Part shown: positions 16,158 through 62,710 of the stretch, in pieces
Numbering within the stretch: position 1 is the stretch's first letter
Layout: each line of letters opens with the position of its first letter
Source of the DNA: Candidatus Omnitrophota bacterium
Lineage (GTDB): Bacteria > Omnitrophota > Gorgyraeia > Duberdicusellales > 4484-171
Reading direction: 5' to 3'
Assembly: GCA_021735655.1 (NCBI GenBank)
Contig: JAIPGM010000007.1
Location: 6,125-70,124, forward strand
DNA: 64,000 nucleotides
Notes under the pieces: generated by a model
The model's database searches: none
Seen by the model: the letters and a program-made list of their open reading frames with translations, nothing else
What the model was told of the DNA's origin: nothing
Position numbers and translations under genes: made by a program

Positions 16158-16302
16158 AATATTTTAGTTTAAATATTTTTAAGTTAAAGCGATTATATCA
16201 CATATTTTTAAGTTACCCAAAAGAGAAAATAACTTAGTCGGGCTTTAAAAAATAGCTTCTCTAACTACCTGCTATATAGGCATTTATGAGTACAATCTTT
16301 GC

Positions 16303-16336
16303 AAAAAAATAACCCCGCGCCTATTGAAGCGCGGGG
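16303..16336 (-). terminator. rho-independent terminator (8-bp GC stem CCCCGCGC/GCGCGGGG, 8-nt loop, then TTATTTTTTT on the minus strand)
   Basis: Perfect GC-rich inverted repeat at 16313-16320/16329-16336 followed on the minus strand by a U-run, 68 nt downstream of the small Lys-rich ORF stop. Confidence 0.65.
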
Positions 16337-16403
16337 TCGAAATTTCATCGATGTTTTTATTCGTAAGAAGTTAAACAAAGGTTCTATTACCTTCGTCTAT
16401 CAC

Positions 16404-16475
16404 TTATTTCTTTTTTTTCTTTGCTGCTTTTTTCTTTGCAGGTTTTTTCTTCTTTGCTGCTTTCTTCTTTGCCAT
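16404..16475 (-). CDS. 23-aa lysine-rich peptide MAKKKAAKKKKPAKKKAAKKKKK (histone-H1-tail-like basic peptide; function unknown)
   Basis: ATG at 16473-16475 is preceded at optimal spacing by a strong SD AGGGGGGTG and an upstream TTGACA-17-TAAATT promoter, and is followed by an intrinsic terminator. Below the ORF-track size cutoff. Confidence 0.45.
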   Translation of the reverse strand: MAKKKAAKKKKPAKKKAAKKKKK

Positions 16476-16531
16476 GAAAATCACCCCCCTTTTTTATTCT
16501 CAACACTTTGTTAAGAAATACCTTATAATTC

Positions 16532-16560
16532 AATTTAACAAACTTATCACTCAATGTCAA
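16532..16560 (-). promoter_or_regulatory. sigma70-like promoter (TTGACA, 17 nt, TAAATT) for the Lys-rich peptide gene
   Basis: Minus-strand TTGACA (plus 16555-16560) and TAAATT (plus 16532-16537) with a 17-nt spacer, about 55 nt upstream of the ATG. Confidence 0.45.
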
Positions 16561-16676
16561 CACATTTTCGTGTTTTTTTTGATTTTTTAATGCGACTTAA
16601 ATTTTTTGAAATTGCTATTCCGAAAAATTATTAGTTGAATTATTTTTCAAAGTCATTAAAAATGACTAAAAAAATA

Positions 16677-61332: not shown

Positions 61333-61741
61333 TATTAACCTCCCGGCAGTTTTTACATGTACCATAGAAGTAACCCTGAAGCTCTTCGATGATATTACCG
61401 TCAACTTCTCGTTGTTCAAGAGCCTTGCAAGGCTTCATATTAAGATCCGAAATTTCATCACAGCTCTTACATAAAAAATGATGGTGGGGGTCAATTCTAG
61501 CTTCAAAGCAAGACTTATCAAACTGTATTCTTATCTCATTAATTACGTGCTTCTGCTTAAAAAGATCCAAAACCGTATAAACAGTAGCCAAAGATACTGC
61601 TGGCATTCTAAGCTTAACTCTCTCGTAAATCTGATCAGCAGTTAAATGCTTACCATTATTTAAAAGAACTCCATGGACCTCTAACCTCTGCTGAGTTGGC
61701 CTTATATCATGACCCCTTAATACCTTAAGACTGTTTTCCAT
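61322..61741 (-). CDS. Fur-family metalloregulator (PerR-like by context)
   Basis: N-terminal HTH region, HHHF.C..C metal-site motifs, C-terminal CxxC; heads the oxidative-stress cluster. Confidence 0.85.
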   Translation of the reverse strand: MENSLKVLRGHDIRPTQQRLEVHGVLLNNGKHLTADQIYERVKLRMPAVSLATVYTVLDLFKQKHVINEIRIQFDKSCFEARIDPHHHFLCKSCDEISDLNMKPCKALEQREVDGNIIEELQGYFYGTCKNCREVNNGK

Positions 61742-61750
61742 ATTAATCGA

Positions 61751-61779
61751 CTATACAACTTTTTCTCCTTATTGTCAAG
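61751..61779 (-). promoter_or_regulatory. sigma70-like promoter for the fur-family gene (TTGACA, 17 nt, TATAGT); implies a near-leaderless mRNA
   Basis: Minus-strand TTGACA (plus 61774-61779) and TATAGT (plus 61751-61756); the ATG lies only about 9 nt after the -10 element. Confidence 0.5.
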
Positions 61780-61807: not shown

Positions 61808-61928
61808 TTAAAAGTCATAACCCTCTTTCCTCCATAAGGTTCTAGTCCAACTCATTAATCGGGTTAAAAAATGGGCATGAAAACAAGCTAAAAAATAATA
61901 GCGTTTTCAGATCAAAAGAAAAATACCC

Positions 61929-61958
61929 TTGAAAGGAAAGCTAAAACCATGTTATATT
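61929..61958 (+). promoter_or_regulatory. promoter module A (TTGAAA, 18 nt, extended -10 TGtTATATT), plus strand
   Basis: Part of a roughly 44-nt block repeated in inverted orientation at 62517-62545. Confidence 0.55.
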
Positions 61959-61964
61959 TATATG

Positions 61965-62067
61965 AAATAAGGGTAGCATAACAACTTAAACTAAAAAAGA
62001 GAGGGACTTCCGTTAAGGAAGAGGCTTCAAGAATAATCTTGTAAGCAGAAACCCCTCTCTTTTTTTA
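61965..62067 (+). ncRNA. candidate ~100-nt small structured RNA (orphan; promoter A to intrinsic terminator)
   Basis: No ORF. Short leader, then a multi-branch structure (outer stem AGAGAGGG/CCCTCTCT enclosing hairpins CTTCC-GTTAA-GGAAG and GCTTCAAGA-ATAAT-CTTGTAAGC) followed by T7. Confidence 0.4.
61993..62067. terminator. bidirectional rho-independent terminator (A6-stem...stem-T7)
   Basis: AAAAAAGAGAGGG...CCCTCTCTTTTTTT works on both strands, ending the plus-strand sRNA and the minus-strand pilZ transcript. Confidence 0.6.
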
Positions 62068-62123
62068 TAGAATTTTTAAACTATCTTTAAGCTGAAACGA
62101 TTGAAAAGGTTGGGTTTTTAAGG

Positions 62124-62453
62124 CTAAGTTGCAAAAACTTTCCCTAAAAAATGGGAAAGCGACTTCTTGCCTTTCTCATTTAACTCAATGAATTGAAGAC
62201 CAGCTGAATAACGATCAGCCATCCTATCTTTATTGCACCAAACAAGTTTGGCCTTTAAGTCGACCACTGCATCAACAAGGTTAACATGTAATTTTAAAAG
62301 ACTATCTCTAGGAATAAAGGTATTGCTTACTATCTTTACTCCAACCATACTTAGATCCTTGCAAACGGTATAAAAATACTTCTGAGAAGGAAGAGTTTTG
62401 CACTCAACCGGGAAAGATATTCCTACTCTGGGGTTATTTCTTCTTTCTTGCAT
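62124..62453 (-). CDS. single-domain PilZ protein (c-di-GMP receptor-like)
   Basis: RRNNPR (RxxxR) and DLSMVG (DxSxxG) motifs, 109 aa. Confidence 0.7.
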   Translation of the reverse strand: MQERRNNPRVGISFPVECKTLPSQKYFYTVCKDLSMVGVKIVSNTFIPRDSLLKLHVNLVDAVVDLKAKLVWCNKDRMADRYSAGLQFIELNEKGKKSLSHFLGKVFAT

Positions 62454-62464
62454 AATTGTCGGTT

Positions 62465-62510
62465 AAAAAAGAGTCCGAACCCGTGGCTTTAGAGACACAA
62501 GTTCGGATTT
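62465..62510 (-). promoter_or_regulatory. promoter-proximal hairpin plus U6 tract in the pilZ 5' leader (attenuator/terminator-like)
   Basis: Minus-strand RNA forms UCCGAAC-(20-nt loop)-GUUCGGA then CUC-UUUUUU, ending 11 nt before the pilZ ATG; no SD in between. Confidence 0.45.
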
Positions 62511-62516
62511 CATATA

Positions 62517-62545
62517 AATATAACATAATTTTTCTTACTTTTCAA
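62517..62545 (-). promoter_or_regulatory. promoter module B (TTGAAA, 17 nt, extended -10 TGtTATATT), minus strand
   Basis: Inverted copy of module A, including an identical 20-nt core ATGTTATATTTATATGAAAT. Confidence 0.55.
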
Positions 62546-62635
62546 GGTAAATAGGCAATATTTCTGAATTTTTTTCTCTTCTCTAACCGTCTGGCTGGTA
62601 AAAGGTAGGGGCATTTTGAAAATATAAAAAATACG

Positions 62636-62710
62636 TGGCTGCCCGGCTAGGACTCGAACCTAGGAAACAAGAACCAGAATCTTGCGTGTTGCCAATTACA
62701 CTACCGGGCA
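62636..62710 (-). tRNA. tRNA-Gln (anticodon CUG)
   Basis: Hand-folded: acceptor TGCCCGG/CCGGGCA (U1-A72, G73 as in bacterial tRNA-Gln), anticodon stem CAAGA/TCTTG with loop TTCTGGT, T-arm CTAGG-TTCGAGT-CCTAG, encoded CCA. G37 is atypical. Confidence 0.75.

Follow-up and report, generated by a model that had tools for sequence, protein, structure and literature searches.

The pilZ gene in the 64-kb stretch of DNA analysed here (the window) is preceded by a compact, conserved leader element in which a near-consensus promoter, P2, is followed at once by a stable hairpin and a U-rich tract. The same promoter-hairpin-U-tract unit is present upstream of pilZ in nine Candidatus Omnitrophota lineages, the window having been placed in this group by the protein names attached to PilZ homologues, and its conservation in related genomes shows that the arrangement is selected and not accidental. 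We conclude that this is very likely a genuine conserved leader element that limits or gates pilZ transcription, and very likely a new one, undescribed, unannotated and without an Rfam match. With moderate confidence we interpret it as an intrinsic (Rho-independent) terminator, conserved and located at the very 5' end of the pilZ mRNA, which would act as an attenuator. Its interest lies in the fact that a compact conserved leader RNA motif of an uncultivated phylum, Omnitrophota, one that is not in Rfam, is tied to a single c-di-GMP receptor gene.

The features of the locus are listed in Table 1. The pilZ start site, which we infer at a predicted position of about 62510 on the minus strand, 7 nt past the -10 element, leaves three unpaired A residues before the hairpin begins. 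The U-tract ends only 11 nt short of the AUG in the window, which leaves no room for another promoter, and pilZ must therefore be transcribed through the hairpin. An earlier note on this DNA had given the parts in the order promoter, hairpin, U-tract and AUG, and both its coordinates and its order are correct when read on the minus strand. That strand also carries 60 of the 61 large non-overlapping ORFs of the window, an unusually long co-directional run.

Table 1. Positions of the pilZ leader, pilZ and neighbouring features in the window
Feature	Coordinates	Strand	Description
tRNA-Gln(CUG)	62636..62710	-	Same direction as pilZ; leader hairpin 125 nt downstream of the tRNA
pilZ promoter P2	62517..62545	-	-35 TTGAAA, 17-nt spacer, TG-extended -10 TATATT; 10/12 match with TG
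Leader hairpin	62474..62507	-	Fold and covariation over nine lineages
U-tract CUCUUUUUU	62465..62473	-	CUC (62473-62471), then U6 (62470-62465); abuts 3' side of stem
Spacer AACCGACAAUU	62454..62464	-	11 nt, without Shine-Dalgarno; between U-tract and AUG
pilZ AUG	62453-62451	-	
pilZ	62124..62453	-	109 aa, single-domain PilZ; PF07238, E = 6.7e-13
P1 RNA	~61965..62066	+	About 100 nt, three-way junction and U7 tail; convergent to pilZ
Promoter P1 of the P1 RNA	61929..61958	+	Near-consensus; near-copy of P2 in the window

The hairpin, UCCGAACUUGUG-U-CU-CUAA-AG-C-CACGGGUUCGGA (62507 to 62474), consists of a 12-bp stem with two tandem U·G pairs, a 1x1 mismatch, two further pairs and a 4-nt loop, and its minimum-energy and centroid structures agree. 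Its folding energy is -18.2 kcal/mol, compared with -8.6 +/- 2.3 kcal/mol for shuffled sequences (z = -4.17), and none of 200 shuffles is as stable. The 7-bp stem and 20-nt loop of the earlier note are replaced by this fold of 12 + 2 bp with a 4-nt loop, and the proposal that the 20-nt loop is a binding site falls with them: most of that stretch is paired within the longer stem, the loop proper measures 4-8 nt and is not the same from lineage to lineage, and the invariant portion of the hairpin is the upper stem, not the loop.

Seven hairpin plus U-tract elements at -12 kcal/mol or below are present on the two strands of the 64-kb window, and the pilZ element is the second strongest of them. 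The strongest, at 16304-16345 (minus strand, -20.3 kcal/mol), has a canonical terminator shape, showing that the organism possesses hairpin-plus-U elements. It lies approximately 330 nt downstream of the nearest ORF, and the region 16160-16676 on the minus strand provides 500 nt without a long ORF that could represent a long 3' UTR or a non-coding RNA. A simple terminator scan of the window, which allowed loops of 3-8 nt and counted only uninterrupted pairs, did not list the pilZ hairpin.

The gene behind the leader has the features of a PilZ-domain c-di-GMP receptor, with a match to PF07238 together with both the RxxxR motif (RNNPR, residues 5-9) and the DxSxxG (D/NxSxxG) motif (DLSMVG, residues 33-38). 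Residues R5, R9, S35 and G38 are invariant among 34 PilZ homologues, and an exact look-up of the PilZ protein of the window showed that it is not on record. This match and the conservation described below bear out the earlier description of a promoter followed by a terminator-like hairpin and U-tract before a genuine PilZ gene.

The translation start is well defined. An in-frame TAA at 62463-62465, 12 nt upstream of the AUG, the alignment of the N-terminus MQERRNNPR with the orthologues, and the position of the RxxxR motif, which begins at residue 5, together exclude an alternative in-frame start with a Shine-Dalgarno sequence; the earlier note had raised such a start as a possibility, and none exists. 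The best anti-Shine-Dalgarno duplex within 20 nt upstream of the AUG has an energy of +0.4 kcal/mol, confirming that pilZ has no Shine-Dalgarno sequence in the window. This absence had been taken as part of the mechanism, a role it does not keep, because it is not conserved among the orthologues and genes lacking a Shine-Dalgarno sequence are frequent in the window. AAGGAG or GGAGG precedes the AUG in three of the eight close lineages (L008, L011 and L014) and such a sequence is lacking in the other five, and 29 of the 61 large ORFs of the window have no start with a Shine-Dalgarno duplex of -6 kcal/mol or better. A leader-peptide attenuator was also considered, and is rejected for want of a conserved leader peptide: the only start-like codon opens a three-codon UUG frame inside the stem, without a Shine-Dalgarno sequence and with neither frame nor length conserved.

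Two further observations concern starts at related loci. The fur-family gene downstream of pilZ has the promoter TTGACA-17-TATAGT (61739-61778, minus strand) with its ATG 8 nt past the -10 element, and its mRNA is probably leaderless; a Fur/PerR-like box, AATAATCATTATT, lies just upstream and is also present in L002 and L005. For L008, gene call P0005 of the public annotation (147 aa; position 2001) starts at the TTG of the -35 element and translates the promoter and hairpin, and the real pilZ start is an ATG 105 nt downstream of the start of the call, behind AAGGAG (L008-L010).

To define how far the unit extends among relatives, the loci of 14 homologues and one genome hit were compared. All of the orthologues at 59-81% identity carry it (the window, L001, L002, L005, L008, L011 and L014), and its shared parts are TTGAAA, 17 nt, TGnTAnnnT, a 5' arm CCGAACUUGUYG, a 3' arm GCCACGGGUUCGG and a U-rich tract. 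The 13-nt 3' arm is 100% identical in these seven lineages, which were reached through protein similarity alone, and the third codon positions of pilZ average 44% identity across the same seven. The gene neighbourhoods of pilZ differ in most lineages that carry the unit. The window, L002 and L005 have tRNA-Gln upstream and the fur-family gene downstream, the tRNA lying at a distance of about 600 nt in L002 and L005 and being absent from the remaining lineages; L001 has a 407-aa ORF upstream and a 75-aa ORF downstream, neither with an assigned identity; L008 has a TPR-repeat gene upstream; L011 has a divergent gene upstream and a MarR gene downstream; and L014 has a GGDEF-HD gene and a deaminase gene upstream.

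Searches that began from the RNA led to the same gene. A metagenome scan with the 3' arm and tail gave 25 matches, five of which also have the 5' arm and promoter, and all five of these precede pilZ; two of them, L036 and L044, together add a single new lineage. The 5' arm is missing from the other 20, which have no pilZ after them and are taken as chance matches. A covariance model built from eight sequences recovered a ninth, diverged copy in L048, where the hairpin precedes a pilZ-like ORF that is followed by pilZ. Every true copy found thus precedes pilZ, an exclusive association with one gene function. The covariance model finds no second copy of the hairpin within the 64-kb window, and a search of viral contigs with the upper-stem pattern gave 70 pattern matches and no true copy; the single partial match there that the covariance model kept lacks both the lower stem and the U-tract and is attributed to chance.

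The hairpin is absent in the more distant pilZ orthologues (50-59% identity; L016-L020 and L046), which retain the promoter type, and this marks the hairpin as a derived trait of a single pilZ clade. The pilZ AUG comes only 9-10 nt after the -10 element in L016 and L019, giving the appearance of a leaderless gene, and L017, L018 and L046 have longer leaders without the hairpin. These distant orthologues lie in a conserved cluster of genes for peptidase M50, DHQ synthase, PilZ, a second PilZ, DUF4416 and a radical-SAM protein, and a Cys-rich ORF of about 50 aa is often found between the two pilZ genes.

Comparison of the nine lineages supports both the fold and its strand. The P2-type -35 TTGAAA, the 17-nt spacing and TGnTAnnnT are common to all nine, and the distance from promoter to hairpin is fixed in seven. 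Standard pairs make up 98.2% of the pair cells across the nine lineages, a value that falls to 20-50% when the partner is slid by 1-3 columns; the nine-lineage alignment was fitted to the model, so that its pair count leans that way, and the count from eight sequences is unfitted. Three hairpin pairs have changed on both sides, and the covariation score obtained is not attained in any of 500 column shuffles. The basal pair is U-A, U·G or C-G depending on the lineage, L011 has one extra inserted pair, L005 replaces C-G, U·G, U·G with U·G, U·G, C-G, and L048 has CUGGAC/GUCCAG in place of CCGAAC/GUUCGG, representing two compensated pair changes. All of the 5'-arm substitutions preserve pairing through G·U, and because the pairing relies on G·U the fold exists only in the pilZ-sense RNA; the covariance model gives 61.7 bits on the sense strand versus 24.9 bits on the antisense strand.

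The two halves of the stem behave differently. The lower stem covaries, whereas the upper stem with its tandem U·G pairs and U·C mismatch is constant: C-G, U·G, U·G, G-C, U-A, the U·C mismatch and G-C are identical in eight of the nine lineages, with the mismatch one position higher in the window than elsewhere. The true loop differs between lineages in both length and sequence.

Several properties point to termination. In all nine lineages the stem has an energy of -14 to -20 kcal/mol and a G+C-rich base, and is followed directly by 7-8 U residues within 9 nt. The U-tract always adjoins the stem but lies anywhere from 9 to 59 nt before the AUG, indicating that it belongs to the hairpin and not to the ribosome-binding region. 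From these features we infer termination at the U-tract, and with it any regulation, as follows. RNA polymerase would initiate at the strong conserved promoter and transcribe the three unpaired nucleotides and the 34-nt hairpin, reaching the U-tract at about +37 to +46, where a large share of the transcripts would end as an RNA of about 46 nt. Only read-through transcripts would carry pilZ, and these would retain the 5' hairpin, which may also stabilise them. The level of read-through could be set by weaknesses built into the stem and tract (in the window the two U·G pairs, the U·C mismatch and the C-interrupted proximal U-tract), by a factor acting in trans that reads the invariant upper stem, or by a combination of the two.

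Conditional control of pilZ termination is plausible, and its form is constrained by the position of the hairpin. Seven of the nine lineages have only 3-5 nt between the predicted start and the stem (the exceptions are L008, with about 7 nt, and L014, with about 17 nt), which makes an antiterminator in cis impossible, and neither the single-sequence fold nor the consensus fold contains an antiterminator alternative, a single helix dominating in both. Any control would then have to be exerted in trans, by a factor that acts on the hairpin. Such a factor is suggested mainly by the invariance of the upper stem, which far exceeds what termination needs; a stem so nearly invariant is more than a plain terminator requires, suggesting that something else is also selected. 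Should the upper stem serve to modulate the terminator, the signalling pathway would be controlled through the abundance of its receptor as well as through the level of c-di-GMP; if it is simply leaky, it would be an ordinary throttle on a strong promoter.

The pilZ leader resembles known leader terminators and attenuators in having a promoter and then a hairpin with a U-tract before the coding region, in the predicted expression of the gene by read-through, and in the short RNA expected as a by-product. Short RNAs derived from 5' UTRs by premature termination have been seen widely by Term-seq and 3'-end mapping. The leader differs from these systems in having no upstream antiterminator sequence, leader peptide or recognisable aptamer, in the location of the hairpin 3 nt from the start, and in the near-invariance of the stem sequence. 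The B. subtilis pyrG attenuator is closer in layout, with a short leader, a terminator near the start and no conventional encoded antiterminator; its antiterminator arises from reiteratively added 5' G residues, and it depends on transcription starting at GGGC and on a C/U-rich complementary 5' arm. The pilZ start is instead AAA or AAG, and poly(A) would have no target in the 5' arm, so that nothing supports a reiterative mechanism of the pyrG type. The c-di-GMP-I and c-di-GMP-II (GEMM) riboswitches are likewise RNA elements acting in cis before c-di-GMP-related genes, but the pilZ element, one 34-nt hairpin, is much smaller than their aptamers. Rfam searches yielded no match to the leader at the gathering threshold, nor at E values up to 10 in 61900-62640, where only tRNAs and noise were returned; neither c-di-GMP class was matched, in keeping with the earlier statement that the leader is too short for a known GEMM riboswitch.

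The strongest rival to attenuation is that the hairpin is a 5'-terminal stabilising stem-loop that protects pilZ mRNA from 5'-end-dependent decay of the RNase E, RNase J or RppH type and causes little termination, the U-tract being incidental or else an S1 or standby site for translation without a Shine-Dalgarno sequence. Stabilising hairpins work only very near the 5' end, as in the ompA leader of E. coli and in B. subtilis model mRNAs, and the pilZ hairpin, a stable stem-loop within a few nucleotides of the predicted mRNA 5' end in seven of the nine lineages, would have exactly the placement that such a hairpin needs. Termination could also be weak in the window, where the tail starts with CUC and the stem is interrupted by a mismatch and contains two wobble pairs, and a U-rich leader might aid initiation in the five of eight close lineages in which pilZ has no Shine-Dalgarno sequence. 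However, L014 and L008 keep the hairpin behind longer unpaired 5' tails, and the conserved U-tract, which ompA-type stabilisers do not need, tracks the stem rather than the AUG; together these argue against stabilisation as the full explanation. Nor does a stabiliser require a specific sequence, yet the upper stem is invariant. Stabilisation is compatible with attenuation and the two roles are not exclusive, but as the principal function it seems to us rather unlikely.

A more elaborate possibility, which we regard as unlikely, is that the hairpin is a minimal terminator-embedded sensor, with the upper stem docking a specific partner that, once bound, would fix the level of read-through by stiffening or melting the stem. 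The partner might be PilZ itself, with or without c-di-GMP, giving feedback, or another RNA-binding protein, or a small molecule. Such a sensor would provide an RNA-level control loop for a c-di-GMP receptor and would be among the smallest terminator-embedded switches. A precedent is the HMP-PP (thiS motif) 'terminator-embedded aptamer', which resembles a plain terminator and for which unusual conservation and association with one gene function were among the flags used (PMC6478431). The pilZ hairpin shares with the thiS motif the unusual conservation and the exclusive gene association described there (PMC6478431). The thiS RNAs have a conserved loop and an alternative fold, with P1 and a pseudoknot, that uses sequence 5' of the stem and competes with the base of the terminator (PMC6478431), whereas the pilZ loops vary in all lineages, only 3-5 nt precede the stem, and we found no alternative fold. 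The pilZ hairpin therefore lacks the structure of an aptamer of the HMP-PP type, and this assignment is rejected.

It is improbable that the main product of the locus is the RNA of about 46 nt, acting in trans through an Hfq, ProQ or FinO type protein or another partner, with pilZ expressed by read-through. The element does have its own strong promoter, a terminator and conserved sequence, as an sRNA gene would, and the locus holds a second unit built alike, the P1 RNA, with a promoter, a structured RNA and a U-tail. It has almost no conserved single-stranded seed, however, with 3 nt at the 5' end, a variable loop and its conserved nucleotides paired, and it is never found apart from pilZ. We also considered pairing in trans between the P1 RNA and the pilZ leader, and rejected it since the duplex energies are near or weaker than those of shuffled controls and the predicted sites are inconsistent.

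Highly improbable is a DNA-level element, either an inverted-repeat operator for a transcription factor downstream of the start or the terminator of an upstream co-directional gene: CCGAAC...GTTCGG is an inverted repeat in DNA and the window has a same-strand tRNA gene 125 nt upstream, but 26-28 bp lie between the half-sites, pairing of the inner half is possible only in the sense RNA (U·G would be C·A on the other strand, and the bit scores are strand-asymmetric), and the observed substitutions keep RNA pairing through G·U and not DNA symmetry, on which grounds an operator is rejected, while a terminator of tRNA-Gln is rejected because the hairpin stays locked to its promoter where the upstream gene is different, divergent (L011) or far, and in the lineages, the majority, that have no tRNA.

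The P1 RNA is itself a conserved structure. Its fold has an energy of -32.9 kcal/mol (z -5.0), and its promoter, junction and tail are conserved in five lineages (the window, L001, L002, L005 and L036), with six pairs compensated; it has no match in Rfam. The RNA is antisense to the pilZ 3' UTR, and the same DNA also serves as the terminator region for pilZ. On the P1 strand the U7 tail never varies, whereas the U-tract read in the pilZ direction is eroded in L002 and L005, indicating that the structure is first of all the P1 RNA's own terminator.

The promoters of the two units are related in the window by a 26-nt inverted repeat (61943-61968, plus strand, and 62507-62532, minus strand; 92%, with a 20-nt exact core), which spans the spacer, the -10 element and the start region of both, so that two promoter copies flank pilZ. 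The 20-nt exact repeat occurs only at those two sites in the window, compared with 0.03 expected by chance. In other lineages the P1 and P2 promoters share consensus elements only, and the repeat therefore looks like a recent copy or conversion in the genome of the window. Two short motifs lie upstream of these promoters. One, at about 1985-2000 in L008 and about 1404-1417 in L048, is a perfect palindrome, GTAAACGTTTAC, that directly adjoins the -35 hexamer of pilZ's promoter, and a related sequence, RRCGYTTYCA, is found 19-28 nt upstream of the P1 -35 element in the window (61901-61910), L001, L002, L005 and L036; the two may represent a shared transcription-factor site.
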